A DNA stretch of 64,000 nt from Gammaproteobacteria bacterium (GTDB lineage: Bacteria > Pseudomonadota > Gammaproteobacteria > JABABF01): contig OZ242171.1 in the NCBI GenBank assembly GCA_965205525.1, positions 1,869,098 to 1,933,097 on the forward strand. Direction: 5' to 3'. A program made the position numbers and the translations under genes. Below are positions 12,806 through 57,091 of this stretch, one piece after another. Under the pieces are notes generated by a model. The model had not been told where the DNA came from. It did not search any database and was given only the letters and a program-made list of their open reading frames with translations. Each line of letters begins with the position of its first letter. Within the stretch, counting starts at the first letter, position 1.

Positions 12806-12896
12806 TGTGCTTCTTCTTCTGCCGCTGTCTCTTTGTGCTTCGGAACTGCCTTCACCGCTCTGCTTTGCGGGCAGTCGGCATCCCCTGCGACTTTCA

Positions 12897-13670: not shown

Positions 13671-13678
13671 CTCTTCTC

Positions 13679-18223: not shown

Positions 18224-18246
18224 GCCATGCAGAGACCGCCGGCAGT

Positions 18247-20052: not shown

Positions 20053-20058
20053 GGCCGG

Positions 20059-20442: not shown

Positions 20443-20704
20443 TGGGAAGCTGATGCTGATGAAGGCGGAAGGATTCTCGGATCAGGCGTTTTAGGCAATT
20501 GCGCTGCACGGCGCGCTGCGCTGCCCGGCGGCCGACCACCATGCCGAGGCGCGGATGATTGAGAGAGTTGGGCAGTCCCAGCAGCACCAGATGCTGGCCG
20601 TGGATACGGAGGGAGGCCCGTTGCAGAATTTTGCGAAATTCCCTTGTGCTCCGCAGGCGTCGCTGCTTTGGCAGGCCAAAGCCGGATATGTGCCAGTCGG
20701 ACAC
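20279..20704 (-). CDS. rnpA: ribonuclease P protein component
   Basis: [13 protein letters not shown]...[48 protein letters not shown] is the RnpA family signature. Starts 27 nt after the rpmH stop. Confidence 0.8.
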
Positions 20705-20731
20705 ACCGCTCGGAAGAAGGTGCCCGCCGCC

Positions 20732-20866
20732 TCAGGGGGCAAGCCTTTTGCGCCCTTTCTGCCGCCGCCGGCTGAGAATCTGACGACCGCTGCGGGTGGC
20801 CATCCGCGCCCGGAAGCCGTGGGTGCGCTTGCGCCGAATTACGCTCGGCTGATAGGTGCGTTTCAT
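20732..20866 (-). CDS. rpmH: 50S ribosomal protein L34
   Basis: The reverse strand encodes [44 protein letters not shown] (44 aa). Not in the ORF track because it is under 60 aa. Confidence 0.9.
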
Positions 20867-23288: not shown

Positions 23289-23844
23289 GTGTCTGCTCTC
23301 ATCAGCGGAAGCAGTGTGCCTGCTGTTTAAATTTAATGGATACTTTGCCTGTCCCTTGCATAAGCTTTGCATGCCGAATCATCGCCGCTGCAGGGCTGCG
23401 CAGCAGGTTTCGCGACACAATTTTTTTGCGCGGTTTTTTCCTGTCGGTGAGCTTTTTGTGAAAGATTTTTTCCGACTGAATCTTTCTGCACATGCTGCGG
23501 GTGCCGCCGCGCTAAAGACGGGACATCTGCGACACGGAGCTGCCCTTGGTCCGCTTCGCTTCCCGCCGCTCTCTCCGGTGCCAGAGGAAGCGCAATGCGG
23601 CGGCCAGAGGGCTCCGTGCCGATGAACCGCATAGGATCAATCCTGCATCAGGGGTGCAATGTGAGGGCTGAAGGCACTACAATACTGTCATCCGCTCCGC
23701 AGCTTGTCAGCAGAGTGCTATCGCTCTGGCGGAGACTCCCCTCCCGGAGCTTTTGCGGCGTAGCCCAACGCCTTGGGAGAGGCCTTTGAGAAGCCCCCTC
23801 GGTGCTGGGAAAGGAAGCAACCGATATATGAGAGACCTGTCGAA

Positions 23845-24984
23845 ATGAAACTGAAAATTACTCGCGAAACTCTGCTGAAACCATTGCAGACCACCGCCAA
23901 CATTGCCGCCAATCGTGTCAATGACAGCGGCCAGATTCGGGGCGGAGTGCTGCTGCGCCTGAAGGACGAGCATTTGCAGCTGACCGGCACCGGCAATCGC
24001 CTTCAGCTCCTTGGCGTGTCGGACCTCCCTGGAGTGAAGGGCAGCAGCGGAGAGATCGCCATGAGCGGCACGAAACTGCTAGATATATGCAATAAGCTGC
24101 CTAATGACAGCGAGTTAGCGATAGAAGCCGACAAAGAATGGGTTGTTCTCAAGTCCGGCCGGAGCCGTTTCAAGCTGGCTGTCTTCCAAGCTGCGGAATA
24201 TCCGGTCATCGCCGAGATGGAGGACGACTTGGAAACCTCCGTCAAACTGTCGGCAAAGGACCTTATTCGCCTGATTCGCAGAACGGTTTATGCCATGGCC
24301 ACGGAGCAGGATGTGCGGGATTACCTGCGCGGCGTCTTGCTGGAGGCCCGAGATGGCCAGCTGCGCTCCGTTGCCACAGATGGCCACAGGCTGGCCATGT
24401 GCTCCATGAAGGCCAGTGTTTCGGTGAAGGAGCCCCAGCAGGCCATAGTGCCCCGGGCCAGCGCTCAGGAGATGCTGTCCCGCCTGGACACCTTGGATGA
24501 CAAAGATGTGGAGGTGGAGCTGACCTTGGGGCAGAAATATATCCGCCTGGTCACCCCATCGCATCGCATTGTGTCTATGCTCGTAGATGCGAAATATCCC
24601 GACTACGAGCGTGTCATACCCCGGGACGGCAACAACGAAGCCGTCTTCTCCAGAAAGAATTTTGAGCAGATGCTGAGCCGAATCAATACTGTCCTTGTGG
24701 AAGAAGATGTTCCGGTGGTGCGCCTGGCCTTCTCTGAAAATATGCTGCGCATGCTGGCGCGCAACTATCAGAATGAGGAGGCGGAAGAGGATATGGAGGT
24801 GGAATATAAGGGGGAGTCGCTGGAAATAGGTTTTAATATCCGCTATATGCACGACCTTATGCATGCCTTTGGGCATGAGGAAGCAGTGCGGATCACCATG
24901 ACTGATGCCAACAGCAGCGCCCTGATTCAGAGTGCAGACAAGAATCCGGACACGCTGCATGTGATTATGCCGATGCGCTTTTGA
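23845..24984 (+). CDS. dnaN: DNA polymerase III beta sliding clamp
   Basis: MKLKITRETLLKPLQTTANI...; three-domain clamp length (379 aa); C-terminal MPMRF. Confidence 0.85.
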   Translation: MKLKITRETLLKPLQTTANIAANRVNDSGQIRGGVLLRLKDEHLQLTGTGNRLQLLGVSDLPGVKGSSGEIAMSGTKLLDICNKLPNDSELAIEADKEWVVLKSGRSRFKLAVFQAAEYPVIAEMEDDLETSVKLSAKDLIRLIRRTVYAMATEQDVRDYLRGVLLEARDGQLRSVATDGHRLAMCSMKASVSVKEPQQAIVPRASAQEMLSRLDTLDDKDVEVELTLGQKYIRLVTPSHRIVSMLVDAKYPDYERVIPRDGNNEAVFSRKNFEQMLSRINTVLVEEDVPVVRLAFSENMLRMLARNYQNEEAEEDMEVEYKGESLEIGFNIRYMHDLMHAFGHEEAVRITMTDANSSALIQSADKNPDTLHVIMPMRF

Positions 24985-25028
24985 ATGAGGTCTCGGAAAA
25001 CTCCCTTGGCAATTTCTGCACATCGGCG

Positions 25029-28687
<3,659 letters not shown>

Positions 28688-29684: not shown

Positions 29685-30185
29685 GTTGACCGCGCTCCGG
29701 ATCTCACACCGACCGATGGTCGTGACCGCCAGGAAGCATCCGCTGCCATTCAAAGATGCGGGGCAGCGGCTGAACATAGCCGGTCACATCGGCAATGGCC
29801 AGACGCTTCGGGTCCAGCAGCTTTGCTTTGAGAAGAATATTCTGGCCTGACAGCTCTCCCAGGCGATAGACATAGGTGCCGCTGGCGGTCGGTGTCATAT
29901 TCGGCTATGTGTATATGCAGCTTTTCGGCATCTCAGGTGTGCCCCAGATTGCGGCCGCTCAAGGGGTTCAGGCGCGTCTACTGGGGCGGGGGCCAATGTG
30001 CTGGGAAGTATCGCAGTGAATTGAATAAAGCGAAAAGACTGCCCCATGCTGGTCTCCTGACTGTCGTCGCCGCTATAAGCGTGGCGCGGGGCCCAGCCGT
30101 CAGCAGAGGCAATATAATGCATTTAAGGGTGTGTCTGCAGTATCTGTCGGCATCTGCCCGTGCTCTTTGTCACCGGCGAGTGGGG

Positions 30186-32096
30186 ATGACTCTGAATTTG
30201 CTTCTTCGGCACAAAACTTTAGGCCTGCTTTTCCCAAGGGGATTTGCGGCCATTGCTTTCTGCTGTCTATGGCTGGCATTTGCGCCCGCCTCTGCGCAAT
30301 GGATATCCACCCCTTTGCAGGACGGGCCCGCACCTGCGGACACGAAGTCCGTCCCCGAAGACAGGAAGCCCGCCTCTTCAGCTGCGAAACCTGCCTCGTC
30401 TTCTGCCCCCGCTTTCCCGGCCCCCTCACGCACAGTGCGCACATCGCCGGTTTCGGGCCGTACCCCTCCGGTTTCTGCACGCGTGCCCCCGGTTTCAGTC
30501 CGCACTCCTCCGGTCTCAGCTCGCACTCCTCCAGTTTCCGCCCGCACACCGCCGGTTTCGGGCCGAATTCCGCCGGTCAATGTGCGCACCCCCCCGGTTT
30601 CAGTCCGTACCCCTCCGGTTTCTGCACGTGTGCCTCCAGTCTCGGCTCGCACTCCTCCAGTTTCTGCACGTGTGCCTCCGGTCTCAGCTCGCACGCCTCC
30701 AGTTTCCGTCGCCACACCGCCGGTTTCGGGCCGAATTCCGCCGGTCAATGTGCGTACGCCCCCCGTTTCAGTCCGTACCCATCCGGTTCCTGCACGTAAG
30801 AAGCGCGTTCAAGGCAGAAGGCAACAATTTTACCGAAATACACCGCCATTCTCTGCAAAGATGCCTCCCATTTCCCTGCCCTTGGTCCCCCCTGTTTCCG
30901 GCAGGCCGGACCCGCTCTCTGTGCGCTTGGGCACTCCCCCCATGCAGAAGATATCTCGGGCCTCTGCTGACATGCAGCGGAGCTTTTCCCCGAGACCCGC
31001 TCCCCTTATGCAGCTAGCCTTTGCCTACCCCCAGAAGCCTGTGAGGGCATCCGCATATCCGGCCCTGGCACAATCATCCCCCGCACCTGCACCTGTGTCC
31101 GCCCCTGCGCCACCGAAATCAGCTCCTGGCTGTGAGGGCGGATCTTCTGCTCTGGCGGAGATGATCCCTGTAAAAGGCGGCTCTTTCAAAATGGGAGACG
31201 AGCATTTTTATCCAGAGGAAGGGCCGTCGCGCCGCGCTCATGTAAAGCCTTTTCTAATTCGGCGATTTGAAGTCACCAACGCCGAGTTTGCCGAGTTTGC
31301 CGATGCCGCCGGCTATCGCACATTGGCCGAGCGCGGCCTGGCTGCAAAGGACTACCCCCAAGTGCCGCCGGAAATGCGAGTCCCTGGATCAGCGGTTTTC
31401 ATACCCCCCGCCGCACCCGAGACTGCCAGCCCGTCCCGCTGGTGGCGTTTCGTGCCCGGGGCGAATTGGCGACATCCTCAGGGGCCGGATAGCAGCGTTC
31501 AGGACAAGCTTTACCATCCGGTCGTTCATATCGCCTATGAGGATGCCCTCGCCTATGCCCGCTGGAAGAAACAGCGACTGCCCACGGAGGCGGAGTGGGA
31601 ATATGCTGCTCGCAATGCCAGTGCCCAAACCCCGCCGCCAAAAGCATCCGAGCAGAGGAAAGCGCCCCGGGATGCCAATGTCTGGCAGGGGCACTTCCCC
31701 GACAGGAACACCTTGGAGGATGGCTATGCCGGCACTGCCCCGGTCGGCTGTTTTCCGCCGAAGGGTGCCGGACTGCACGACATGATCGGCAATGTCTGGG
31801 AATGGACATCAAGCTGGTACTACCCGCACCACAGCAAAGAGCACAGTCGGGCCCAGCCTTCGCCCGGCTTTGACCCGAACCAGGCGGGTGCGCCGGTTCG
31901 GGTGGTGAAGGGCGGCTCCTACCTGTGTGCGGAGAACTACTGCATGCGTTTTAGACCGTCGGCGCGGATTGCCCAGGAGGTTGGGCTCGGCACTTCGCAT
32001 ATCGGCTTTAGGACGGTCGCCGACATTCCGGCAGAGCATGCGTCTGGCACCGGGAGCTCTGACAGCAAACCGAAGGCTCCCTCACGCAAAAAATGA
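30186..32096 (+). CDS. secreted formylglycine-generating-enzyme (FGE/SUMF1)-domain protein with N-terminal Pro-rich heptad-repeat region
   Basis: Signal peptide MTLNLLLRHKTLGLLFPRGFAAIAFCCLWLAFAPASAQ; about 18 RTPPVSA heptads; C-terminal FGE-sulfatase domain (GGSFKMGDE, RLPTEAEWEYAARN, GNVWEWTSSWY, RVVKGGSY). The ORF-track start at 29892 adds 98 aa of non-signal sequence and is unlikely. Confidence 0.7.
   Translation: MTLNLLLRHKTLGLLFPRGFAAIAFCCLWLAFAPASAQWISTPLQDGPAPADTKSVPEDRKPASSAAKPASSSAPAFPAPSRTVRTSPVSGRTPPVSARVPPVSVRTPPVSARTPPVSARTPPVSGRIPPVNVRTPPVSVRTPPVSARVPPVSARTPPVSARVPPVSARTPPVSVATPPVSGRIPPVNVRTPPVSVRTHPVPARKKRVQGRRQQFYRNTPPFSAKMPPISLPLVPPVSGRPDPLSVRLGTPPMQKISRASADMQRSFSPRPAPLMQLAFAYPQKPVRASAYPALAQSSPAPAPVSAPAPPKSAPGCEGGSSALAEMIPVKGGSFKMGDEHFYPEEGPSRRAHVKPFLIRRFEVTNAEFAEFADAAGYRTLAERGLAAKDYPQVPPEMRVPGSAVFIPPAAPETASPSRWWRFVPGANWRHPQGPDSSVQDKLYHPVVHIAYEDALAYARWKKQRLPTEAEWEYAARNASAQTPPPKASEQRKAPRDANVWQGHFPDRNTLEDGYAGTAPVGCFPPKGAGLHDMIGNVWEWTSSWYYPHHSKEHSRAQPSPGFDPNQAGAPVRVVKGGSYLCAENYCMRFRPSARIAQEVGLGTSHIGFRTVADIPAEHASGTGSSDSKPKAPSRKK
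30429..30797 (+). repeat. 21-bp (7-aa) tandem repeat array, ~18 copies, consensus RTPPVSA; contains a higher-order duplication
   Basis: ccggtttc[ag]g[ct]ccg[tc]acccctccggtttctgcacg... repeated. The segment SGRIPPVNVRTPPVSVRT occurs twice about 190 bp apart. Confidence 0.8.
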
Positions 32097-32348: not shown

Positions 32349-33524
32349 ATGAAACGCAGTCAGAGTGATACGGGCAGTTATAAGACTGTCGCGACTGCAG
32401 GCGAGCGGTTTCAAGCGTTCGTGCCAGCCCCCTTGCCGCCAAACCCTGCTTTAGTTTTGGATGGCCCTATTGTGCAGTTGCTTGAGGGTGCAGCACATGC
32501 CCTCGGACGCCTCAACAATGCCCGGGATAATCTGCCGTACCCGTATTTCCTGTATAGCTATGTCCGGAAGGAAGCAGTGCTCTCTTCACGGGTAGAGGGG
32601 ACCGAGTCGACACTGTCGGACCTCCTGCTCCATGACCTGAATGGGCCTTTCGGAGTCCCGTTTGATGATGTGAAAGAGACCTCGCTGTATGCTGAAGCGC
32701 TAGAGTATGGCCTGCGCCGTCTGCAAGACATTCCGCCGTCAAACCGATTGATCCGCGAGGTTCATGAAAAGCTGCTTTCTCATGGGCGCGGGAACGATCA
32801 AAATCCTGGTGAGTTTCGTCGCTCGCAGAATTGGATTGGCGGCGGCCAGCCTAGCAATGCTGATTTTGTGCCGCCGCCCCACATTGATGTGCCCGACTGC
32901 ATGGCGGCGCTTGAGAGATTTATTCATGCTACGGATGACGGGCTGCCCATCTTGATTCGGGTGGGACTTGCACACGCGCAGTTTGAAACCATTCATCCCT
33001 TCCTTGACGGAAACGGACGAGTGGGAAGGCTGCTTATCTCCTTGCTGCTGTCTCATTTCAAGATGTTGCAGCAACCGCTTCTGTACCTGAGTCTGTATTT
33101 CAAGGAGAACCGCGATAGTTACTATGATCTGCTCAACCGCATACGCCGCGACGGTGACTGGGAAGAGTGGCTTAAGTTCTTCCTTAGAGGAGTGCAGGAT
33201 ACAGCGGATAGTGCGGTCTCAGATGTGCAAGAAATCATCCGTATATTTTCGGATGACCAATCTAAAATTAAAAAAGAGGCTGGTCGTCGCACTGGAACAG
33301 CATTGCAGGTGCATACGGCATTTCAAAAGAGGCCGATTCTATCCCGCGGCGAAGCCAGCCGTAAGACGAAGCTTTCTTATCCCGCGGTCGCATCAGCAAT
33401 AAAGCTTCTTGTTGAGAAAGGAATTGTGCACGAGCTTCCTATGACGGCGCCGCCAAAGCGCAACATGCCGCAGTTCTTCGTTTACACAAAATACTTTTCC
33501 ATCCTTAACAAAGGCGATGAATAG
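32349..33524 (+). CDS. Fic family protein (probable AMPylator), class II with N-terminal inhibitory motif
   Basis: Fic core motif HPFLDGNGRVGRLL; an inhibitory-helix-like (S/T)xxxE(G/N) motif SRVEG upstream; C-terminal winged-helix-like tail. Preceded by a 250-bp AT-rich spacer. Confidence 0.8.
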   Translation: MKRSQSDTGSYKTVATAGERFQAFVPAPLPPNPALVLDGPIVQLLEGAAHALGRLNNARDNLPYPYFLYSYVRKEAVLSSRVEGTESTLSDLLLHDLNGPFGVPFDDVKETSLYAEALEYGLRRLQDIPPSNRLIREVHEKLLSHGRGNDQNPGEFRRSQNWIGGGQPSNADFVPPPHIDVPDCMAALERFIHATDDGLPILIRVGLAHAQFETIHPFLDGNGRVGRLLISLLLSHFKMLQQPLLYLSLYFKENRDSYYDLLNRIRRDGDWEEWLKFFLRGVQDTADSAVSDVQEIIRIFSDDQSKIKKEAGRRTGTALQVHTAFQKRPILSRGEASRKTKLSYPAVASAIKLLVEKGIVHELPMTAPPKRNMPQFFVYTKYFSILNKGDE

Positions 33525-40749: not shown

Positions 40750-42752
<2,003 letters not shown>

Positions 42753-42902
42753 TTATAAGCACTAGCGACATTGACATTGCGCCATATTGCGATATGATTT
42801 ATCCGGTTTTATGTCACAGAATTTCCCATTGTTTTAAGATTTTCATGCCGCTCTTATCCAAAGACTGGATGCGGATTTGAAAGGGTTGGGGAAGAGGAGG
42901 CT

Positions 42903-45900
42903 TTGTATTTGAAAATCCGCTTACTACTTAATACAACTGCCAGAAAGCCCGATGCGGGCAATCAGAGGCATGGAATAAGGGGATATCTTGCAGGAATCCT
43001 GCTGTTTTCACTTTCTCTGGCGGTCGTCCCTGTCGGTGCGCAGGAGCCTGTGCCGGCGCTGAGTTTGGAAGTGACCGGGCTGCCAGCGGGCAGCGGAGCC
43101 ATCCCCGAGCGGCTTCAGCTTTTCCTTGACTGTACCGAGGGGGAAGAAAACGATAATTGTTTCCAAGGACTTAAAGGACCCTCTACAGCCTTTGGCGGCA
43201 TTGCCCTCAGCCCGGACGGCAGGCTGCTGGCAGTTCTGGGGGCGGGCGATAATGCTCTCAGTCTGTGGCAGGTGGATACTGCCTCTGACACTATCAGCCG
43301 GAGTGCTCTTTATTGCAGTTCTGTGGGTTCTTGCCCAGGAGGCACGGATGTAGAGTATGGCCTTGAAGCGCCAAACGATCTCACTTTCAGCCATGATGGC
43401 GAGCTGCTGATGGTTGCTAATCTTGAATCAAGATCTTTAAGCGTCTGGCAGGTGAATGCAGAAGCTGGAACGCTCACTCGGAGCGCAGTCTACTGGGATA
43501 GCGGCACCACAGGCAGAGGCAACTGTCAAGACGTTTTCAGGGACATAGACCAGTGCTCTGCTAGGGAGAACAGTGACGGTGCAAGAATAGGATTAGTTGA
43601 AAACGGCGGGTATCTCGCCGACGGGCTGAACGGAGCTTTTGATGTCGCGGCCAGCCCGACTCATGATCTGCTGTTCATTACAGGCAGGAGTGATAGAGCT
43701 CTCAGTGTGTGGGCAATAGATGCGCAGGCCGGCACTCTCACCCAGATTGCACTTTACAAGGGCGGCAGTTCAGGGGCAACGGCTTGCTCAGGCACAGGCT
43801 TCAGCGGGGCAAACTGTGAGGACGAGCTGAGCGGATTGCAGGGAGTGCGCGGTCTCACAGTGAGTCCGGACGGCAGGTTGGTATTGGTTGCGGGCTCTGG
43901 CGAAAATGCTCTGAGCGTCTGGCGGGTGAACCCGGAAGCCAGCGGTACTGCAGTCTTGACGCAAACCGATATTTATGAAGATGGGGCAAATGGCATTGAC
44001 GGTCTTGGCGGTGTGCAGGATATTGCAGTGAGCCCGAATGGTCGCCTCGCATTTGCCACAGGTACTGACGAAAATGCACTCAGCGTATGGCGGGTGAATG
44101 CGGCGGCTGGCACCCTCACCCAGACCGCCCTTTATTGGGATATTAATGCTGAGAACTGCACAGATGCCGAGGAAGCTCAGGGAAACTGCTTTGATGGTCT
44201 CACATCGGTTCGCAATCTCACCCTCAGCCCGGACGGCAGACTGCTGTTTGTGACCGCGGTAACCGATGATTCCCTCAGTGCCTTTGAGGTGGATGATTCC
44301 AGCAGCACCCTTCGGCAGACTGCTCTCAGCCGGATAAGGTCCAATGTGCTTGTCGGGTTAAACACTGCAGCCGATGTCATTTTCGGGCCCCTCAGCGCGC
44401 CCGATGCCGCTGTCGGATTGGGCAACCCGGCCGGTGTTGTCGTCAGCGCCGCCGGCACAGTATTTCTTAAGGCGGGTGCGGGCACTGCCGTAGGCGCTCT
44501 TTCCACTTGGCGGGTGACACCTCTTGTGCCGACATACAGCTCAGTTGTGCTGACCGTGGAGACGGATAGGGTGCTGTCTACGCCGACAACAGCAGCGGTG
44601 AAATTGATATCACGGCGGGACATGCGAGAGTTGCTGCTGCCAGTGACTCTGTCCAGCGCGTCGGTTGAGGCGACGATTCCGGCAGGCATGCTGACCCCGG
44701 GCCTGTGGGATATTACTGTGCAAACGGAGCCGGGTGCGGCGGACGTGACAGGGGCACAGGGACTCTTGAGGGTGGCGCCGCTGTCTTTGCGTCTGCAGAG
44801 AGAGCAGCAGGGAGACCAGGTGAATCTTCGTGCCACAACTACAGAAGGCCCGCCGATTGCGGCGATTACAGTTACAGTGCAGGTGACGGATACCGACGTA
44901 AGTACAGCGGTCACTTTTACGCTCACTCCCGAGAATTTCCAAGATGTTCTCGTTCCGTTTCCGGCGGGTGCCCTGCCCTCGGGACGTTACAGTGTCTCTT
45001 TAACGAGCTCGCCGACCGGCACTATAAACACGGTTTCAACGAGAGCTGCGTTGATGGTGCGTGATTACACTCTGAGCTTGGAGGCACCGGCCGAGACTCT
45101 GACAGCTAACGAATTCTCGGTCACGGTGAGCGCAGCGCCCTCCCTGGAGACGACACTTAGGGTTACAGTAACACTGCGAAATGACGGAGTGGCGCTACAG
45201 ACGCGCCTGGCAATCTTAACGGCGGCCACTCCCTCACAGGCTGTGGCTTTCACGGCACCCGATGCTTCCTCCCCCATAACCGTGATGCTGGATACGGAGA
45301 CTATGGCCGAGGATGAGTCTGTGACAGTGGTGGAGGCAAGTATCGCGAATGTGCTTATTCTGCCGTTGCCGGCCGTTCGCCTTGTGTTCAGTGAGAACAC
45401 AGCGCGTATCGGCATGGATGTCAGTGTGAATGGTGTGCGTATTATGGTGGACAGCATGCCATTGACGGCTGCGATTGTGACAGTCAAGGCGACACTGCGG
45501 AATAGCCGCCAGACGAGCATAACGGCGTCGGTTGAAGTGGGGCCGGATAATTTTGAGAACCTCCGCGCTATGTTTTCGGTGGTCGGCGTGCCGGCAGGGC
45601 TCTGGGACTTGTCGGCGAGCTCTTCACCCCCCAATGCTCTGGATACCACTGGCTTCACCGGCACATTGCGACTAAACGCATTACCGTTCTTGGTGTTGCC
45701 AGAAGATAATATGCCGGCGGGGCGCAGCCTGAAGGTTTCATTGCGGACCGTTCTTCTTGTGACAGAGGAATTCAGGCTCAGCGCGATAAGGCAGGGAAGC
45801 AGCCCAGAAGTGCGGATAGAAGCAGATACGCCCATCACCTTCACAAATACAGACGCCGGTACGGCGACGTTTGCAGCGGGCTTAGATTCAGGAGTGTGGA

Positions 45901-48900
45901 GATTTCGGCTGTCGCCAAGACCGGGTGAGAACTTCGTGGAAATTTTCTCTTCAGGCTTTCCCATGCTGACGGTATCGCAGCGGCTTCTGACGCTGACACC
46001 GACCCAAGAGGGCGCCCAAGTGCAGGTTCACTTAGCGGCTATAGGAGGAGCGCCGGCGACGCCGGTGACAGCGATGGTGGTGGCAGAGGGTGGCGCAACG
46101 AGCAGGACACTGGAAATCACTCTTGGGCCAGATGCTGCTGAGAGTGTCTCTGCATTCCCGCCAGGCGTTCTGCCGCCAGGTGTCTATGATTTTTCAGTGG
46201 TTTCTTTATTGCCGCCCGACATCGCAATGATTGATAATGAAACAGGCACAACTACGCTGACAGTGGTATCGGGACTGAGTTTCATGCTGCCGACGGGCTC
46301 AACGCTGCCGGCGGGAAGCACAGTGATGGTTACGGTAATACGCAACAGCTTGGGAAGTGCGCTTCTGGATATTGATGCATATACTGGGGATGGAGACATT
46401 GAAGACAGCACGATAGTGTCAGCCAACGAAGTCGTTTCTTTTCCTGAGGATATGCTTACTGGGATGGCGGTATTTTCTGCGGGGAGTTTGCTTCCCAACA
46501 TATGGAGATTTAGGAGTAGTAATGATCTGAATATTGGGAGCAATGATAGGGTCACTGCATTGACCATAGAAGATCGGGTCCAGGTAACCCTGACCCCCGA
46601 TGCATCTGCGGTGTCGGCAGGGGGGGCGGTCCGCCTGGTTGCGACCGCGGTGCCTTCGCTGGCTGAAAGCCTCGGCAGGGTGCTCATTACGGTTACGGCG
46701 ACCGGAAGCAGTGGCCTCGCCTCTGGGCAATCAGAGGAGCAGATGGTCACTCTGTCATCGGAGCTGAATGCTGAACCAGTGATATTCCCGCGCCTGGCTT
46801 CGGGCGTCTGGATGATTAACGGGACGGACGCAAGAAACGCTGTGACCATTCCTGAAACAGAAGTCACCGTAGTGCTGTCAGCGGTAATTTTTGAGTCGAC
46901 AGCGTCACTGACCGATATAGATGGCGCCATGCGGCGGGCGGTGGCAGTGGGCAGCGATGTGCGCCTTGGACTGACGGCAGACCCTGCACCGGGCACGTCG
47001 GTGACGGTCACGGTGAGTGCTGTAGATGGCGATACGGGGGAGACGACAACGACAGAGGTCATGCTCTCGTCGAGCGCACCTGCGGCTGAAGCGCTATTCA
47101 GCGGGGCGAATGCCCTGGGTGTGGGCACATGGGGGTTTACCGCTGTGGCGAACCCGACTGATACAGTGGTATTTCAAGCAGCACCGATGGTGGTTGTGCT
47201 GGTGCCGACAATAATTCTCACATCGGACAGCGATGGAGAGACTGTGCGCGTAACCCAGCCGGTGCGCTTGACGGTAGCCTCAATGCCGTTTGCGCCAGGC
47301 ATGCCTGTAGAGATCAGTGTCCTTGCATCTCTTGGAGATAGAGAAAGCACGCAAATGGTCACCCTGTCGCCAGAAATGAGCTCGGCGTCGGTCGAATTTA
47401 CGCCGGACGTGCTGGGCCGGGTGGTGGGTGATTGGACCTTTACAGCAACAGCAGAGCCGGAGGGATTGGCAGATGTATCCGGGGCGGCGGTGACCGTGCC
47501 GGTAGGGCTGCCTGCAGTGCTTCTGACGCCGGTGGGAACAAGCTTAGACACAGGCAGCAGCGTGGTGCTGACAGTGAGCACAGATGCTCCGATAGAGGGC
47601 GAAGTCAGCATCACGGTGACAGGTATGTCAGAGGCAGGTCCGTTGCCACCCATGGCGGTTGTGCTGAGCCCGGGTGATACTGAAGAGACGGTAGATTTTG
47701 GTGTACTGCCCGAAGGCGAATACACCTTTACGGCAACATCCACGCCGACAGGCACTGTAGAGACCGTTTTTTCGACAGTGACGGTGATCATCGCCCCGGG
47801 CGGGAACCTATTGGACAGCCTTTCTCTGACACCGAGACAAATCGTGCAGGGCACTGTCGCCATCCTGAGGGTGGAGAAGGTCAGGTCGGCAGACAGTGCG
47901 CAGACTGTGACCGTTCTAAGAGATGGGGTGCCAGAGGGGGATCTGGTTATTCCTGCTGATTCACCCTCTGCCGAGGCAATGGTGCGGGGAGACGGTATCG
48001 GCGCATACACCTACTCTTTGGGAGACCCGAACAGCGAGCTGGCCAACGAAGAAGAGGAGCGTTTCCGACAGCCGCTGCGCGTGGTGGCCGATGTGCAGCT
48101 TAGCTTCGGGTTAAGTTTTGGCTATGTTGGTCAGTCTGTGGGCATCCGTGCAGCCTTGGTGGATGCAGACGGAAGCGCCGAAAGCCTGGACACGAGCGTG
48201 ACGCTGACCCTGCGGGCTGAGGAAGAAACGAGCGGGATGGTTTTGGATGACATCTCGCTGACAATCCCTGCAACAACGATATCCGGCAGCGCCGTATTCC
48301 TGCCGTCCATAGCCACTACTTGGACAATAACCGTAAGCGAGATAAGTCCGCCGGATGCCCTGCTGGTGCCGGCGGTCAGTATTGCACCGGCAGCAATAGC
48401 TATCAGGGAGCCGCTGCAGCTGGTGCTTATGCCGACTATTTCTTCGGTGCTTATCGGCAGTCCGATTGAACTGATGATAACTGCTGGCAACGCAGCAGAT
48501 GTGGAGGTGACGGCACTGACGGTAAGAGCCGTGCGGGGAGAAAATGGGCGATCAGACAGCCTGAGTCTGCCCACAGAAAATGAGGTGACAGTACAGCTAG
48601 ACAGCCTGAGTCTGCCCACAAATGTGGTGTTCAGGGCGGGCGATTTGGGGATCGGTGAATGGCAGTTTGAATTAATTGCAGAGCCCGCCTTTGCAATATC
48701 AGTTTCAGCGCCGGCGACAGTGACCCTGCTGGATGCAAACCTGGACCTCAGCTTGCCGGACGGGGACGGGGTAGGTGCGGATGATTTGATATTGCTATTG
48801 CGCTACCAGATATTGTGTGTCAGGCGGGTGCGGCCGGAATTTGACTGTGCAGACGGCCGGAATCTTACGCGCAACTTGAGCGCCGCCGACTATGATCTGC

Positions 48901-49091
48901 CGAGGCTGGTTGACCTGCGTGTGCCGGATGTGGCGAGCGACGGCATCGATCGAGTGAGGGCAGACATTTTTATATTGATGAGTTATCTGCAGGGGGTTGA
49001 AGGAGAGGAAATTTTCCCTCCCTTTGTGGCGCAAGAAGGTCGGGCGGGACTTCTGCGTGTCGTTCGGCACCTGCTGGACAGAGGGCAGTAA
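42903..49091 (+). CDS. giant secreted/cell-surface protein (2062 aa): signal peptide, 6 lactonase-type beta-propeller repeats, ~15 Ig-like ~100-aa repeats, dockerin/EF-hand-like C-terminus
   Basis: Signal peptide LLFSLSLAVVPVGAQEP. Six repeats of the form SPDGRLL.V.G..DNALSVW.V....GTLT. A long T/V/S/A-rich array of beta-sandwich-like repeats. The C-terminus has LPDGDGVGADDLILLLRYQIL and DVASDGIDRVRADIFILMSYLQG, resembling paired dockerin Ca-binding repeats. TTG start with GAGGAGG. Confidence 0.75.
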   Translation: MYLKIRLLLNTTARKPDAGNQRHGIRGYLAGILLFSLSLAVVPVGAQEPVPALSLEVTGLPAGSGAIPERLQLFLDCTEGEENDNCFQGLKGPSTAFGGIALSPDGRLLAVLGAGDNALSLWQVDTASDTISRSALYCSSVGSCPGGTDVEYGLEAPNDLTFSHDGELLMVANLESRSLSVWQVNAEAGTLTRSAVYWDSGTTGRGNCQDVFRDIDQCSARENSDGARIGLVENGGYLADGLNGAFDVAASPTHDLLFITGRSDRALSVWAIDAQAGTLTQIALYKGGSSGATACSGTGFSGANCEDELSGLQGVRGLTVSPDGRLVLVAGSGENALSVWRVNPEASGTAVLTQTDIYEDGANGIDGLGGVQDIAVSPNGRLAFATGTDENALSVWRVNAAAGTLTQTALYWDINAENCTDAEEAQGNCFDGLTSVRNLTLSPDGRLLFVTAVTDDSLSAFEVDDSSSTLRQTALSRIRSNVLVGLNTAADVIFGPLSAPDAAVGLGNPAGVVVSAAGTVFLKAGAGTAVGALSTWRVTPLVPTYSSVVLTVETDRVLSTPTTAAVKLISRRDMRELLLPVTLSSASVEATIPAGMLTPGLWDITVQTEPGAADVTGAQGLLRVAPLSLRLQREQQGDQVNLRATTTEGPPIAAITVTVQVTDTDVSTAVTFTLTPENFQDVLVPFPAGALPSGRYSVSLTSSPTGTINTVSTRAALMVRDYTLSLEAPAETLTANEFSVTVSAAPSLETTLRVTVTLRNDGVALQTRLAILTAATPSQAVAFTAPDASSPITVMLDTETMAEDESVTVVEASIANVLILPLPAVRLVFSENTARIGMDVSVNGVRIMVDSMPLTAAIVTVKATLRNSRQTSITASVEVGPDNFENLRAMFSVVGVPAGLWDLSASSSPPNALDTTGFTGTLRLNALPFLVLPEDNMPAGRSLKVSLRTVLLVTEEFRLSAIRQGSSPEVRIEADTPITFTNTDAGTATFAAGLDSGVWRFRLSPRPGENFVEIFSSGFPMLTVSQRLLTLTPTQEGAQVQVHLAAIGGAPATPVTAMVVAEGGATSRTLEITLGPDAAESVSAFPPGVLPPGVYDFSVVSLLPPDIAMIDNETGTTTLTVVSGLSFMLPTGSTLPAGSTVMVTVIRNSLGSALLDIDAYTGDGDIEDSTIVSANEVVSFPEDMLTGMAVFSAGSLLPNIWRFRSSNDLNIGSNDRVTALTIEDRVQVTLTPDASAVSAGGAVRLVATAVPSLAESLGRVLITVTATGSSGLASGQSEEQMVTLSSELNAEPVIFPRLASGVWMINGTDARNAVTIPETEVTVVLSAVIFESTASLTDIDGAMRRAVAVGSDVRLGLTADPAPGTSVTVTVSAVDGDTGETTTTEVMLSSSAPAAEALFSGANALGVGTWGFTAVANPTDTVVFQAAPMVVVLVPTIILTSDSDGETVRVTQPVRLTVASMPFAPGMPVEISVLASLGDRESTQMVTLSPEMSSASVEFTPDVLGRVVGDWTFTATAEPEGLADVSGAAVTVPVGLPAVLLTPVGTSLDTGSSVVLTVSTDAPIEGEVSITVTGMSEAGPLPPMAVVLSPGDTEETVDFGVLPEGEYTFTATSTPTGTVETVFSTVTVIIAPGGNLLDSLSLTPRQIVQGTVAILRVEKVRSADSAQTVTVLRDGVPEGDLVIPADSPSAEAMVRGDGIGAYTYSLGDPNSELANEEEERFRQPLRVVADVQLSFGLSFGYVGQSVGIRAALVDADGSAESLDTSVTLTLRAEEETSGMVLDDISLTIPATTISGSAVFLPSIATTWTITVSEISPPDALLVPAVSIAPAAIAIREPLQLVLMPTISSVLIGSPIELMITAGNAADVEVTALTVRAVRGENGRSDSLSLPTENEVTVQLDSLSLPTNVVFRAGDLGIGEWQFELIAEPAFAISVSAPATVTLLDANLDLSLPDGDGVGADDLILLLRYQILCVRRVRPEFDCADGRNLTRNLSAADYDLPRLVDLRVPDVASDGIDRVRADIFILMSYLQGVEGEEIFPPFVAQEGRAGLLRVVRHLLDRGQ

Positions 49092-49102
49092 CCCCTGTCC
49101 CC

Positions 49103-49963
49103 GTGAGCAGGCAAACCCCTGGGCTTCTTCTCGGCGGACTGCAATTCTGCGAATGCCCCCGCTGGCGCGACGGGCGCCTGTGGTTTTCTGACATGACCGC
49201 CGGGCGCATACTGGCGACGGACATGGCGGGGCATGCCGAGGAAATCGCCCGCTGGGAAGGCAGACCCGCCGGTCTCGGCTGGCTGCCGGACGGACGGCTT
49301 CTGGCGGTATCCATGCTGGACTGCCGGCTGATGTGCCTGGACAAAGAGAACTGGCGCGAGCTCGCTGACCTCAGTTCCTGGTGCGGCGGTCACGCCAATG
49401 ATATGGTGGTGGACAGCGAGGGACGCGCCTATGTGGGCAATATCGGCTTTGACCTTGAAGCCGAACCCTTTGAGCCCCGGCCCACAGTGCTCCTGTGTAT
49501 TGCGCCGGATGGACAGGTGCAGGTGGCGGCGGAGGAGCTCATTGCTCCCAATGGCATGGCCCTCTCTCCCTCCGGGAAGCAGCTGATACTGGCTGAATCC
49601 GGAGCGTATCGCCTGCTGTCCTACGACATTGCCGCCGATGGCAGTCTCAGCAATCGGCGGGTCTTCGCCGAACTGCCGGAGGGTGCTGCCCCGGATGGCA
49701 TCTGCCTGGATGCGGAAGGAGCGGTATGGGCCGCCAGTCCCACCTCGGGGGAGTTCCTGCGCCTGGCGGAAGGGGGCGATGTGCTGCAGCGTATTTCCTG
49801 CCCCGGCCGTGCACCGGTGGCGGTTGCTCTGGGCGGTGAGCAGGGACGCACTCTGTTCTGCCTCAGTGCTCCCCGCATGAGCATGAGGGAATCCGCCATG
49901 CTCAGCGATGCGCGCATTGAAACCGTGCAGGTAGAATCTCCAGGAGCAGGCCTTCCTTGCTAG
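49103..49963 (+). CDS. SMP-30/gluconolactonase/LRE-like (SGL) family protein
   Basis: CECPRWRDGRLWFSDM...LPDGRLL...DSEGRAYVGN...PNGMALSPSGKQLILAES...PDGICLDAEGAVW is the typical SGL six-blade propeller pattern. Starts 12 bp after the giant protein stop. Confidence 0.7.
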   Translation: MSRQTPGLLLGGLQFCECPRWRDGRLWFSDMTAGRILATDMAGHAEEIARWEGRPAGLGWLPDGRLLAVSMLDCRLMCLDKENWRELADLSSWCGGHANDMVVDSEGRAYVGNIGFDLEAEPFEPRPTVLLCIAPDGQVQVAAEELIAPNGMALSPSGKQLILAESGAYRLLSYDIAADGSLSNRRVFAELPEGAAPDGICLDAEGAVWAASPTSGEFLRLAEGGDVLQRISCPGRAPVAVALGGEQGRTLFCLSAPRMSMRESAMLSDARIETVQVESPGAGLPC

Positions 49964-52731: not shown

Positions 52732-54276
52732 ATGCAGCAGTTAAATCCATCTGAGATCAGCGACATTATTCGTCAGCGAATAGATCAGCTGGAGGTGCGG
52801 GCGGAAGCGCGCACCGAGGGTGTGCTGGTCAGTGTGCAGGACGGCATTGTCCGCATTCATGGCCTGCGCGATGTCATGTACGGCGAAATGATTGAATTTG
52901 AGGGCGGCAGTTACGGAATGGCCCTCAACTTGGAAAGAGATTCGGTGGGCGCCGTGGTGCTGGGGGACTACCTCGGCCTGAAAGAGGGGCAGAGCTGCCG
53001 CTGCACCGGCCGCATTCTGGAAGTGCCGGTGGGCCCGGCGCTGCTGGGCCGGGTGGTAGATGCCCTCGGAAATCCGGTGGACGGCAGGGGACCCCTCGCC
53101 GACTGCGAGACCTCCCCCCTGGAGAAAGTCGCCCCCGGCGTTATCAGCCGCCAGTCGGTGAGCCAGCCGGTGCAGACCGGCCTGAAGGCCATTGACTCCA
53201 TGGTGCCGGTGGGCCGGGGCCAGCGGGAGCTCATCATCGGCGACCGCCAGGTGGGCAAGACGGCGGTGGCGATTGACACCATCATCAACCAGCAGGGCGG
53301 TGACCTGAAATGCATTTATGTGGCAGTGGGGCAGAAGCAATCTTCAATTGTCGGCGTGGTGCGCAAGCTGGAGGAGCACGGCGCAATGGAGCACACTATC
53401 GTGGTGGCGGCCGGGGCGGCCGACCCCGCTTCAATGCAGTTTCTCGCGCCCTTCGCCGGCTGCAGCATGGGCGAGTACTATCGCGACCGGGGCGAGGATG
53501 CCCTCATCATCTACGACGATTTAACCAAGCAGGCGTGGGCCTATCGGCAGATCTCCCTGCTGCTGCGCCGCCCGCCCGGCCGGGAGGCCTATCCCGGAGA
53601 TGTGTTCTACCTGCACTCGCGCCTGTTGGAACGGGCTGCCCGGGTGAATGCAGAGCACGTGGAAAAAATTACGGATGGCGCGGTCAAGGGCCGTACCGGC
53701 TCCCTGACGGCGCTGCCCATCATTGAAACTCAGGCTGGCGATGTCTCCGCCTTTGTGCCTACCAATGTGATCTCCATCACCGATGGACAGATCTTTTTGG
53801 AAACCGATTTATTCAACGCCGGCATCCGTCCTGCCATGAATTCGGGGCTGTCCGTTTCCAGGGTGGGCGGCGCTGCCCAGACCAGCATCATCAAGAAGCT
53901 GGGGGGCGGCATCCGTCTTGCCATGGCCCAGTACCGGGAGCTGGAAGCGTTTGCACAGTTTGCCTCGGACTTGGATGAGACCACCCGGGCGCAGCTGGAG
54001 CATGGCCAGCGGGTGACGGAGCTGATGAAACAGAGGCAGTACTCGCCGCTGTCGGTGGCGGAGATGGCGATCGGCCTGTTTGCTGCCAACGAGGGCTACC
54101 TGAAGGAGGTGCCGGTAAAGAAAGTGGGGGACTACGAGGCCGCACTCCTTTCCTACATGAACAGCGAGTACACCAAGCTGATGGCAGAGGTCAACAAGAC
54201 CGGCAAGTACGACGACGACATCACAAAAGCCTTTCGGGAAGCGCTGGACCAGTTTCAGGCGACACAGGGATGGTAG
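52732..54276 (+). CDS. atpA: F0F1 ATP synthase subunit alpha
   Basis: [18 protein letters not shown] Walker A; 514 aa. Confidence 0.95.
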
Positions 54277-54326
54277 CCATGGCGATATTCCCGACATCCC
54301 CCCGCGGCTGACAGGGAGAGCGCAGC

Positions 54327-55190
54327 ATGGCCGCCGGCAAAGAGATCCGCACCAAGATCGCGAGCATTTCCAGCACGCAGAAAATTACCAGCGCGATGGA
54401 AATGGTCGCGGCGAGCAAAATGCGCCGTGCTCAGGAGCGCATGGCCCGGGGCAAGCCCTATTCCGGCCACATCCGCAGCGTTATCGGTCATATCGCCTGT
54501 GCAACACCGGAGCACCAGCATTTCTACATGGACGAGCGCGAGCCGAAGCGGGTGGGGCTTATCGTGGTCTCTACTGACAGGGGGCTGTGCGGCGGCTTGA
54601 ATATTTCCCTGTTCAAGGCAGTGGTCGGACACATGCGCCAGTGGAATGAGCAGGGCATTGAGGTGGAGCTGTGTCTCATCGGCGCTAAGGCTGGCGCCTT
54701 TTTCAAAAGTGTCGGCGGGAAAGCGGTCTCCCAGGTGCGCGGTCTTGGTGAGAAGCCGTCGGTGGAGGATCTGATAGGCACTGTGAAGATAATGCTGGAC
54801 GGCTTTGAAGAGCAGCGCTTAGATCGTCTGTTCCTGGCCGGCAATGATTTTGTCAATACCATGACCCAGAGCCCGCAGGTCAAGCAGTTGCTGCCGCTGC
54901 CGGCGGACGAGACAGCGGACTACCAGCACCACTGGGACTACATCTATGAGCCGGACGAAGCGGGACCGCTGCTCTCCGGCCTCCTGGCACGCTACATAGA
55001 GGCCTTGGTGTACCAGGCGGTGGTGGAAAACGGCGCCTGCGAGCAGGCGGCGCGGATGGTGGCAATGAAAAGCGCTACGGAGAATGCGGGCGAGCTGATA
55101 GATGAGCTGCAGCTGGCCTACAACAAGAGTCGCCAGGCTGCCATCACGCAGGAGCTGTCAGAAATTGTCAGCGGTGCGGCGGCGGTATAG
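54327..55190 (+). CDS. atpG: F0F1 ATP synthase subunit gamma
   Basis: [36 protein letters not shown]. Confidence 0.9.
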
Positions 55191-55204
55191 ACTGGAGCGG
55201 TGCC

Positions 55205-55675
55205 ATGCGGAATTTGTTCAGCACCGGGCCATGCCGAGTCAGCAGAACTCCCCGCAACTTGGATTTCCAAATGATGCATGTTCAGAAAACCGGGCGGGAA
55301 GATGGCTTTCCCAAGCTGCTGGATGAATACCTGCCCCCGCCATCGCCAGATGCCGAGCCCCCGGTCCGCGAAGTCTTGGATCTTCACGGCTTTTATCTGG
55401 AGGAGGCCCTGGAGAAAGTGCGCAGCCATGTCATCGCGGCGGCCAGAAGCGGCATGGAGCAGGTGCGCATTGTCTATGGTCGGGGGCGGCACTCCCCGGA
55501 CGGCCAGCCAGTGCTTCGGGAAGAGGTGCAGAAGCTCCTGCAAAAGGAGCTGCGACCCTATGTACAGAGATTTAAATCTGCGCCGCGCAAACAGGGCGGA
55601 GAAGGCGTGGCCATCGTCTATCTCTCCCTCGGTGACAGTCGCCAGCGGCTGGCGGCACAGCGGCATGAATCATGA
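55205..55675 (+). CDS. Smr (small MutS-related) domain protein inserted between atpG and atpD
   Basis: LDLHGFYLEEALEKV...VRIVYGRGRHSPDGQPVLREEVQKLLQ...GGEGVAIVYL is an Smr domain. Translation may begin at an internal Met (MMHVQ...). Confidence 0.7.
   Translation: MRNLFSTGPCRVSRTPRNLDFQMMHVQKTGREDGFPKLLDEYLPPPSPDAEPPVREVLDLHGFYLEEALEKVRSHVIAAARSGMEQVRIVYGRGRHSPDGQPVLREEVQKLLQKELRPYVQRFKSAPRKQGGEGVAIVYLSLGDSRQRLAAQRHES

Positions 55676-57091
<1,416 letters not shown>

Follow-up and report, generated by a model that had tools for sequence, protein, structure and literature searches.

Dockerin- and cohesin-bearing proteins also occur in non-cellulolytic bacteria and archaea, as reported by Peer et al. 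2009 and relayed in PMC9012536. In its classical form, the type I dockerin (PF00404; C. thermocellum Xyn10B, PDB 1OHZ_B / 2CCL_B) is a C-terminal module of ~60–70 aa with two tandem F-hand segments of ~22 residues, whose 12-residue Ca2+ loops follow the pattern D1, N/D3, D5, G6, D12. Two unrelated lactonase-propeller giants from other bacteria, P0060 and P0062, end in a canonical Dockerin_1, and the architecture discussed below therefore exists with a true dockerin. Gram-negative fibrillar adhesins, such as the CLIPPER-domain adhesin PDB 9IFR and V. cholerae RbmA, hold a globular head and an attachment element at opposite ends of a long stalk of divergent beta-sandwich domains. How does a giant gene of an uncultured gammaproteobacterium, located in the 64,000-nt stretch of contig that we refer to as the window, compare with these systems?

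A giant propeller and stalk protein

A single intact reading frame of ~6.2 kb runs without interruption from 42903 to 49091 on the plus strand. Its best start is the second TTG, at 42909, a start also used by the identical public protein P0001 (2060 aa, on a 1,998,239-bp contig) and by P0003, which is 88% identical. An earlier interpretation made from the letters alone (the sequence-only reading) had given 2062 aa; the frame stands, with a length of 2060 aa.

42771–42798, plus strand: candidate sigma-70-like promoter, TTGACA-16-TATGAT (consensus scan, 11/12 matches; a consensus match only), ~110 nt upstream of the start
42895–42911, plus strand: Shine-Dalgarno sequence AGGAGG (42895–42900) and start codon TTG (42909), 8 nt apart, read from the sequence
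42909–49091, plus strand: coding sequence of the 2060-aa protein (ORF list and translation; stop 49089–49091), 100% identical to P0001
42909–43040, plus strand: putative Sec-type signal peptide, residues 1–44 (inspection and hydropathy scan; predicted cleavage VGA/QE)
43086–44528, plus strand: seven-bladed beta-propeller, residues ~60–540, whose inter-blade loops contain five close Cys pairs (Pfam PF10282, blade self-similarity)
44529–48737, plus strand: stalk of ~13–14 divergent ~100-aa beta-sandwich repeats, residues 541–1943, acidic, T/V/A-rich and free of Cys
48738–49088, plus strand: 117-aa helical C-terminal module, divergent and dockerin-like, residues 1944–2060 (tail-family HMM E 7e-37; AF2)

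The N-terminal head belongs to the Lactonase seven-bladed propellers: it scores 61.8 bits against PF10282 (Pfam; cutoff 21.7, E 8.4e-17) and contains seven blade motifs at 43209–44516 (residues 101–536), six of them clear and one degenerate, that match one another in self-comparison at E values down to 2e-23. The lactonase-type fold had been recognised from the letters, with six blades instead of seven. Close Cys pairs lie at residues 75/84, 136/142, 206/216, 293/303 and 417/427.

Behind the propeller, self-comparison and an iterated HMM delineate 12 repeat cores of ~70 aa with a period of ~100 aa (residues 544–1927), a spacing that fits ~14 repeats. No Pfam family matches the repeat blocks. 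AF2 confidently modelled the last repeat together with the tail (pLDDT 86.8, pTM 0.82) as an Ig/macroglobulin-like beta-sandwich followed by helices; fold searches match the sandwich to MG, FN3, CARDB and adhesin stalk domains, which places the repeat unit, as modelled for the last repeat, among the Ig-like/macroglobulin/FN3-type beta-sandwich repeats. Of the ~1500-aa array of ~100-aa sandwiches described earlier, the repeats and the fold of the last one hold up, over ~1400 aa. The protein as a whole has a pI of 4.2 and six close Cys pairs, and none of its cysteines falls in the stalk.

How would such a protein leave the cytoplasm? Its N-terminus combines a basic n-region with a hydrophobic stretch, YLAGILLFSLSLAVVPVGA (hydropathy peak at residues 25–42), and a VGA/QE site, after residue 44, at which cleavage is predicted; the signal peptide proposed earlier is thus borne out by inspection and by the hydropathy scan. 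Paralogs carry typical signal peptides ending in ...PAAA/Q. A lipoprotein was considered and rejected because the cleavage site has no Cys. Type I secretion signals, for which the sequence-only reading had advised a check, were looked for as the RTX nonapeptide motif GGxGxD, which is absent from the protein. Searches for an autotransporter barrel, LPXTG, a T9SS CTD and PEP-/GlyGly-CTERM yielded nothing at E<=1 in either Pfam or NCBIfam, and T1SS/RTX, autotransporter, T9SS and CTERM sorting were rejected on these grounds. Reading frame, Pfam propeller, repeats and tail together confirm a real giant secreted multi-domain protein.

The C-terminal module

The tail contains the two motifs that had drawn attention to it, separated by a pair of cysteines.

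48759–48815, plus strand: first segment DGDGVGADDLILLLRYQIL (family motif G.VNADDLVLALRYL), residues 1951–1969, helix 1 and a degenerate loop (alignment of 70 tails)
48816–48848, plus strand: Cys1970...Cys1980 pair between helices, a putative disulfide loop (both columns, C139 and C149 in alignment A3, are invariant)
48924–48995, plus strand: second segment PDVASDGIDRVRADIFILMSYLQG, residues 2006–2029, F-hand-like loop and helix; in relatives, the dockerin matches fall here

In the two-domain model (whole-model pLDDT 86.8) the tail forms helices at residues 1957–1971, 1997–2002, 2016–2027, 2032–2035 and 2042–2056. D-D-L..LRY of the first segment is invariant or nearly so across the family, while in its loop only G6 and positions 8–12 (V-N-A-D-D) are conserved; ligand positions 1/3/5 are lost family-wide in the 70-tail alignment. 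The second segment has the family consensus vPDvTGDGxGxxADIvxLLrYLsG, which aligns to dockerin repeats, and its loop is canonical in many relatives (PDLTGDGAGDMADLL), P0006 and P0137 among them. The window copy, PDVASDGIDRVRAD, is 13 residues long, with one extra residue, Ala at ligand position 3 and an acidic residue at position 13. A disulfide between Cys1970 and Cys1980, like those of the other close Cys pairs, is predicted.

The family is rare, with 54 clusters among 1.84 billion representative proteins, and a literature search retrieved no description of it. Its position is constant: the tail forms the extreme C-terminus, 2–8 residues from the end, in 37/37 proteins with a tail in the initial set of matches, and again in all 70 non-redundant tails aligned, whose host proteins reach 7371 aa. 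An AF2 model of the tail alone, built from 19 sequences, was of low confidence (pLDDT 55), and because of this its Foldseek matches, which amounted to noise, are meaningless.

Is the tail a dockerin? Dockerin_1 is the only Pfam family that tails match repeatedly (4/35). P0137 passes the PF00404 threshold (22.9 bits) with a score of 24.0, and its match extends from profile position 7 to 56 of 57, across both dockerin repeats; P0138 (21.2 bits), P0153 (15.9) and P0143 (15.6) stay below it. When the tail sub-profile A4 was compared with the PDB, the top eight matches were all dockerins, and hhalign of tails against a small dockerin alignment gave probabilities of 47–78% over one loop-helix of ~20 columns. 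The broad tail profile A2 found no dockerin and nothing significant among PDB sequences, and aligned to a single dockerin with 5% probability. The window tail itself matches no Pfam family at E<=10, Dockerin_1 included, and no PDB dockerin; nothing but the tail-family HMM (E 7e-37) ties it to its dockerin-scoring relatives. Both helices expected of a dockerin are present in the AF2 model of the window tail, at the places that the dockerin fold would predict, while the fold searches were swamped by the beta-sandwich. Two tandem F-hand segments with 12-residue Ca2+ loops are not found. No Pfam cohesin domain appears in the precomputed domain lists of family members.

These comparisons partly support the tail as a divergent relative of dockerins, by a sequence similarity that is weak but consistent and resides at the family level only. 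The dockerin-like tail of the sequence-only reading accordingly holds for the family (P0137, the PDB matches of A4, hhalign), while the window copy has no dockerin match of its own. The pair of Ca-binding loops is not borne out, since the first loop has no ligands at 1/3/5 and the second is non-canonical; Ca2+ may be bound, perhaps, by relatives with a canonical F-hand loop.

Two observations on the searches themselves should be added. Fold searches with the two-domain model are dominated by the attached beta-sandwich. The EF/F-hand type of motif can recur in other contexts; a true dockerin query also has calmodulin among its matches.

A modular and expanded family

Relatives combine the same parts in different numbers. 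P0003, although 88% identical, has no propeller and lacks 765 residues; P0002 has two propeller units, and P0126 and P0140 have many. Paralogs further reveal a second class of tail (type-2), ~105 aa long and of the form 'DISGDG...NPFAYLCG...RRVPQPP', which is swapped with the 117-aa tail among similar bodies. No Pfam family matches type-2 tails, and both classes each carry a dockerin-type F-hand.

The gene family is hugely expanded, with tandem arrays, in a few uncultured marine bacteria with small genomes (~2 Mb); in one 2.1-Mb relative, dozens of giant propeller/Ig proteins take up >5% of the coding capacity. The locus adjoins the atp operon, an arrangement conserved in relatives. Among 80 gammaproteobacterial AtpA loci from GTDB (best 83% identity), 0/80 have a tail or giant gene adjoining the atp operon, and a whole-protein search of genome contigs found no relative. 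Rfam and tRNA scans of the 64-kb window were empty.

Proposed role and alternatives

We propose a giant adhesin-like protein, extracellular and fibrillar, that stays on the cell surface by means of its divergent dockerin-like module, and give this reading about an even chance. Sec would export the protein across the inner membrane via its N-terminal signal peptide, and folding would take place in an oxidising compartment, as six close Cys pairs suggest. The seven-bladed propeller would then be presented as a ligand-binding head on a stalk of ~14 Ig/macroglobulin-like repeats, with the 117-residue helical module, a putative dockerin relative, at the other end. The tail would be the constant part of a modular family, always the last domain, behind heads that vary from none to many propeller units. 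Its most likely role would be non-covalent attachment to some partner, either at the cell surface or in the matrix, and this attachment may need Ca2+ in those relatives that keep the canonical F-hand loop. Both the surface location of the window protein and the anchoring role of its tail are what we infer from this architecture. Of the interpretation that preceded ours, the architecture survives and the dockerin likeness is retained for the tail family, whereas the Ca-loop pair and the SMP-30 link discussed below are lost.

Could the tail instead be a lineage-specific sorting or secretion domain, read and perhaps removed by dedicated machinery, its likeness to dockerins incidental or a relic? 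A position so near the C-terminus in every member examined is typical of sorting signals, two tail classes are interchanged among paralogs with similar bodies, the similarity to dockerins is confined to ~20 columns, and a giant protein with a Sec signal alone still needs passage through the outer membrane. Set against these points, the AF2 model depicts a folded domain of ~115 aa with a putative disulfide and neither a short signal nor a transmembrane helix; NCBIfam, the home of known CTERM and T9SS sorting models, has no match, and RTX repeats are absent. No cohesin, outer-membrane partner, dedicated transporter or recurrent partner adjoins the six family loci examined, and one member exceeds the Dockerin_1 threshold across both repeats. 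We regard a sorting domain as unlikely. A broader proposal, that both interchangeable tails (117 aa and ~105 aa) are address tags of an undescribed, cohesin-independent surface-display system that exports and holds dozens of giant propeller/Ig proteins and is confined to a single clade of uncultured gammaproteobacteria with small genomes and, possibly, a life with hosts, is speculative and strikes us as distinctly unlikely.

In X-module-dockerin pairs, the anchoring module packs on its neighbouring domain. The pTM of 0.82 of the two-domain model implies that the tail packs against the last repeat in a defined way, and a conserved LDF strand at the repeat-tail junction fits; both could mean that the tail is an intramolecular folding nucleus or cap that stabilises the end of the stalk and has no external partner. 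Such packing is, however, also compatible with anchoring, and a cap leaves unexplained why two tail classes are maintained, each with a dockerin-type F-hand, and why the module is never internal. It seems improbable to us.

Is the head an enzyme? The gene downstream invites this question.

49103–49963, plus strand: SMP-30/gluconolactonase-like (SGL) gene, 286 aa, GTG start (PF08450 E 4.7e-49, profile positions 2–245 of 246)

Its full-length HMM match assigns it to the SMP-30/gluconolactonase/LRE-like family PF08450, as the sequence-only reading had proposed; the spacer, given there as 12 bp, measures 11 nt from the stop of the giant gene to GTG 49103, with no nearby Shine-Dalgarno sequence. 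The two genes are probably co-transcribed. A catalytic lactonase of the surface or periplasm that works with the SGL product, as enzyme scaffold or operon, would agree with the Lactonase and weak SGL matches of the propeller and with a neighbour 11 nt downstream on the same strand. The propeller, however, scores only 25 bits against the 6-phosphogluconolactonase equivalog NF008258 of NCBIfam (cutoff 370) and is missing altogether from the 88%-identical P0003, and tandem many-unit propellers, as in the paralogs, are more typical of binding modules. The SGL gene is absent at three orthologous loci in related genomes (L001, L084, L085); it is not a conserved partner, and we rejected it as a functional one. 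Its product has no signal peptide, and the two products would therefore sit in different compartments. The link implied earlier between the two genes finds no support in these results; the enzyme reading appears very improbable, and the propeller presumably binds rather than catalyses.

The out-of-frame-looking ends of paralogs P0042, P0053 and P0061 in related genomes and the 765 residues missing from P0003 might suggest that repetitive sequence was misassembled into the long frame, or that the frame is a pseudogene in decay. This reading is scarcely credible and was rejected. The 6.2-kb frame is unbroken and has a Shine-Dalgarno sequence and promoter-like site. Tandem or long direct DNA repeats are lacking within it, the blade motif (67–73% identity) being the sole repeat found, which also speaks against the fragment-merging artefact that the sequence-only reading had named as a danger. 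A public protein of identical sequence comes from a 2.0-Mb contig, and full-length syntenic orthologs exist at 38–55% identity.

Should the tail indeed serve as an anchor, the dockerin/F-hand superfamily gains a new branch of great divergence, and a large family of giant surface proteins, evolving fast in genomes of ~2 Mb, has the tail as its shared handle. An outlay of this size, with tandem arrays and a variable number of propeller heads, would then point to cell-cell or cell-host contact as central biology, and the tail would provide a practical bait for partner finding. What the finding contributes is a domain family so far without annotation, and better descriptions of proteins that are nameless in public records; nothing known on dockerins or adhesins is overturned by it.

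Comparison with known systems

The head shares its family and blade number with the 6-phosphogluconolactonase/cycloisomerase-2 propellers (PF10282, YbhE). Unlike YbhE, it is not an equivalog, is secreted, disulfide-rich and fused to a stalk, and is of a type that is dispensable in the close relative P0003.

Like a type I dockerin, the tail is C-terminal and has loop-helix (F-hand) segments, the second of which (vPDvTGDGxGxxADIvxLLrYL in the family) aligns to dockerin repeats, while of the first the V-N-A-D-D-L...L-R-Y half is retained. The Pfam threshold is exceeded by one member of the family, whereas the window copy has no HMM match. At ~117 aa the tail is about twice as long as a dockerin; it has an insertion of 35–45 residues with an invariant Cys pair between the segments and an extra conserved C-terminal helix (R..L..IR..L). 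Its first loop has no Ca ligands, the second loop of the window copy has 13 residues and Ala3, and no cohesin is known for its uncultured gammaproteobacterial host.

With the fibrillar adhesins, the window protein shares a long stalk of divergent beta-sandwiches, a globular head at one end with an attachment element at the other, and a stalk domain that matches their structures. It differs in its N-terminal Sec signal and type of anchor, and has no RTX/T1SS, (inverse-)autotransporter barrel, LPXTG or CTERM.

The noncellulosomal dockerin giants (P0060, P0062; PMC9012536) follow the same logic: secreted multi-domain proteins with a Lactonase-type propeller, beta-sandwich repeats and a dockerin-type end, from hosts not linked to cellulose degradation. 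Theirs is a canonical Dockerin_1 seen by Pfam, whereas the window tail belongs to a family of its own that is far rarer, and paralogs offer an alternative class of tail beside it. Giant surface proteins of this type are known; the window protein is a variant among them and does not constitute a new kind of system.

Architecture of the giant protein

The giant gene of the window is a single unbroken reading frame, and its product is identical over 2060 residues to P0001, a public protein encoded on a 1,998,239-bp contig. P0001 starts at the second TTG, the start codon also of its close relative P0003, which shortens the 2062 aa first proposed to 2060 aa and leaves the claim of an intact giant secreted protein standing.

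Features at the start of the gene
42771-42798: promoter-like site, TTGACA-16-TATGAT, 11/12 matches
42895-42900: AGGAGG, 8 nt upstream of the start codon
42903-49091 (+): giant reading frame; start at the second TTG, 42909

By inspection, the N-terminus is a predicted Sec-type signal peptide, with a basic stretch ahead of a 19-residue hydrophobic core, and VGA-QE after residue 44; neither a lipobox cysteine nor a twin-arginine motif is present in it. The Pfam match is confined to the N-terminal part, where the Lactonase propeller family PF10282 scores 61.8 bits (cutoff 21.7), and self-comparison reveals blade-to-blade similarity down to E 2e-23. The sequence-only reading had recognized this lactonase-type propeller and counted six blades; a motif scan gives seven, the last of them (residues 513-536) degenerate and the others clear, a count that fits the seven-bladed propeller family. 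Could the propeller be a 6-phosphogluconolactonase? This candidate was rejected, since its score with the NCBIfam equivalog is 25 bits where the cutoff is 370, and the propeller is thus a member of the fold family, not that enzyme.

The stalk (residues 541-1943) has no match in Pfam. It is a repeat array with a period of ~100 residues, as had been proposed, in which an iterated HMM finds 12 cores with room for ~14 by spacing; its length is ~1400 aa, not ~1500. In its mature form the protein is acidic (pI 4.2), with T, V and A abundant. All 12 cysteines fall into six close pairs; five lie in propeller loops and one in the tail, and the 1400-residue stalk is free of cysteine, which is consistent with folding outside the cytoplasm. 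The last repeat and the tail were modelled together by AlphaFold2 from 35 diverse family sequences, with high confidence (pLDDT 86.8, pTM 0.82). Residues 1-110 of the model, the last repeat, form a beta-sandwich that most resembles FN3, CARDB and a Gram-negative fibrillar-adhesin domain; the remaining 117 residues, the tail, are helical (helices at protein residues 1957-1971, 1997-2002, 2016-2027, 2032-2035 and 2042-2056).

A rare terminal module

In a first set of 123 proteins (120 listed homologs and three cluster members), the tail family, comprising the last ~113 residues, occurs in 37, without exception ending 2-8 residues short of the C-terminus. When 1.84 billion representative proteins were searched exhaustively with HMMER, a 13-sequence profile matched just 54 of them at E<=1e-3. 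In an alignment of 70 non-redundant tails, from proteins of up to 7371 residues, the match again reaches the C-terminus. This marks the tail as a rare terminal module, restricted to its lineage, and as no ordinary dockerin. Its consensus, with an invariant cysteine pair, is LDF..P..G.VNADDLVLALRYL.LC......C....L..NL....L...L.vPDvtGdG.....DI..LL.YL.G...ELLFP.....R..L.IIR.LL.

Is this module related to dockerins at all? Pfam gives no match to the window tail at E<=10, a broad tail profile found nothing among PDB sequences, hhalign against a single dockerin yields a probability of 5%, and a tail-only structure model was too poor for use. Dockerin_1 (PF00404) is nevertheless the sole Pfam family matched more than once by tails (4 of 35 alignment members). 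The tail of the related protein P0137 reaches 24.0 bits against a cutoff of 22.9, over profile positions 7-56 of 57, spanning both dockerin repeats despite a long insertion; that of P0138 scores 21.2 bits. When a sub-profile was restricted to 12 tails with a PDxTGDG loop, its top eight PDB matches were dockerins, including 2CCL_B (E 0.003), 2Y3N_B, 6KG9_A, 4FL4_A and 1OHZ_B. Against an alignment of five dockerin sequences, P0057, P0060 and P0062 among them, hhalign gives 47% for the whole tail family and 78% for the sub-family.

A single loop-helix of ~20 columns, namely the second segment, carries all of these alignments. The first segment retains just the second half of the dockerin loop (G-x-V-N-A-D-D-L) and the helix, with ligand positions 1, 3 and 5 gone throughout the family. 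In the window tail, as in those of its closest orthologs, the second loop reads PDVASDGIDRVRAD, one residue longer and with Ala at position 3; P0006, an ortholog further removed, has a canonical loop, PDVSGDGEGEIQD. Of the paired calcium-binding loop and helix motifs that had been proposed, the helices are thus borne out and the loops are not, and Ca2+ binding by the window tail is doubtful. The dockerin likeness holds for the family, whereas the window protein has no Dockerin_1 match. As a whole, the tails are best seen as an enlarged and divergent dockerin relative, an undescribed domain family remotely related to dockerins, and the tail may reasonably be supposed to work like one. Alternatively, this invariably terminal module might be a lineage-specific sorting or secretion domain, which we consider unlikely. 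At six family loci, neither a transporter nor a cohesin-like gene was found, nor any other neighbour that recurs. Less probable still is a role as an intramolecular cap.

A modular and expanded family

Homologs of the giant protein come from a handful of ENA assemblies (contigs of 0.2-2.1 Mb), and the family is modular. P0003 (1294 aa, 18,451-bp ENA contig, 88% identical) has its signal peptide fused straight to residue ~819 of the protein encoded at window 42909-49088, so that the propeller and the three initial repeats are missing; this reflects either a genuine deletion or a collapse during short-read assembly. P0135 and P0152 likewise have no propeller, P0002 carries two head units, and P0126 and P0140 carry many. 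The C-termini of the paralogs P0042, P0053 and P0061 are Arg/Gly/Pro-rich and resemble out-of-frame translation, which suggests frameshifted copies or sequencing errors in related assemblies.

The family carrying the tail is strikingly expanded. A 2.10-Mb relative, ERZ25068742, encodes members of 2140, 1006, 2776, 2090 and 6176 aa consecutively, as a tandem array (contig_1, 1450422-1478752), and further members of 3923 and 2250 aa outside this row. All members listed for this relative sum to about 39,000 residues, roughly 5.6% of the genome. The window's own genome holds at least four additional members (P0040, P0041, P0046, P0064).

Paralogs with similar bodies (P0008, P0011-P0014, P0016, P0017, P0020, P0021, P0036, P0038, P0039 and P0047) bear a different C-terminal module of ~105 residues, F.DISGDGxLDIIDLIFLTRN...NPFAYLCG...C..I.SPHQNIT..GIRYEAIGEVLD.LRRVPQPP. 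It has no match in Pfam; its canonical F-hand points to dockerins, which make up most of its weak PDB matches (hhalign 83%). The two tail classes are alike at the F-hand motif only.

Genomic setting

Features beside the giant gene
42123-42641 (-): apparent gene remnant
49103-49963 (+): SMP-30/gluconolactonase-like gene (SGL)

SGL is full-length (E 4.7e-49) and starts 11 nt beyond the giant-gene stop, with neither a signal peptide nor a nearby SD sequence. The adjacency noted initially is real. Orthologs P0005 and P0004 are likewise encoded immediately upstream of the atp operon, without SGL, which is not a conserved partner. The P0006 gene follows an intact ADP-ribosylglycohydrolase gene (354 aa); at the same place the window has a fragment only, matching the final ~60 residues of that protein and the final ~47 of GAPDH, overlapping the pyruvate kinase start and looking like a gene remnant. 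This synteny indicates an old, vertically inherited locus, with the SGL adjacency peculiar to the window genome. That the giant protein is an enzyme acting together with SGL, as their proximity might hint, is accordingly improbable. In one relative, the genes for tail-bearing P0137 and P0141 each immediately adjoin a PF01553 acyltransferase gene (L086, 14061-14819; L087, 8684-9874), which may be coincidence; none was seen beside the window giant gene.

An artefact of repetitive sequence, also raised initially, can be set aside as highly improbable, because the gene contains no tandem or long direct DNA repeats, its sole repeat family being the blade motif at 67-73% identity, and full-length orthologs exist at 38-55%.

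When 15 billion proteins are clustered at 90% identity, the highly conserved AtpA, AtpG and AtpD (52732-57091) each remain singletons. The nearest AtpA sequences in GTDB, at 83% and 81%, belong to two uncultured gammaproteobacterial MAGs; Pseudohongiella and Pseudomonadales MAGs come next. Among 80 GTDB AtpA loci, not one carries the tail or a giant gene adjoining the atp operon. The window therefore comes from an uncultured gammaproteobacterium of a very sparsely sampled lineage, whose genome measures about 2.0 Mb.

Other features of the window
11912-28687: chromosome origin neighbourhood, with parB (-), mnmG/gidA 14459-16465 (-), mnmE and yidC, then dnaA 21609-23288, dnaN, recF and gyrB (+)
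29892-32096 (+): 734-aa protein, ~420 residues without domain assignment, then a C-terminal FGE-sulfatase (formylglycine-generating enzyme-like) domain
32349-33524 (+): Fic/DOC protein
55205-55675 (+): 156-aa Smr-domain protein (PF01713, E 3e-20), between atpG and atpD

Cumulative GC skew is lowest at about 16-18 kb, and the giant gene lies ~21 kb from dnaA on the same strand. The Smr gene keeps its operon position in two related genomes (L001, 21228-21713; L084, 17217-17529), and a Fic gene lies near gyrB in L086 as well.

Interpretation

The initial observation stands with its length, blade count and stalk corrected, its interpretation in part only. The evidence best supports reading the product as a secreted, fibrillar adhesin-like protein, in which the propeller would serve as head, the Ig/MG-like repeats as stalk and the dockerin-like terminal module as an attachment handle common to the family. 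Two tail classes addressing an undescribed display system would, if true, be a finding of greater interest. Compared with dockerins, the tail family adds a putative disulfide-loop insertion and an additional C-terminal helix. According to PMC9012536, which cites Peer et al. 2009, dockerin and cohesin modules occur well beyond cellulosomes. P0060 and P0062, from other bacteria, share the architecture of the giant protein, but end in a canonical dockerin.
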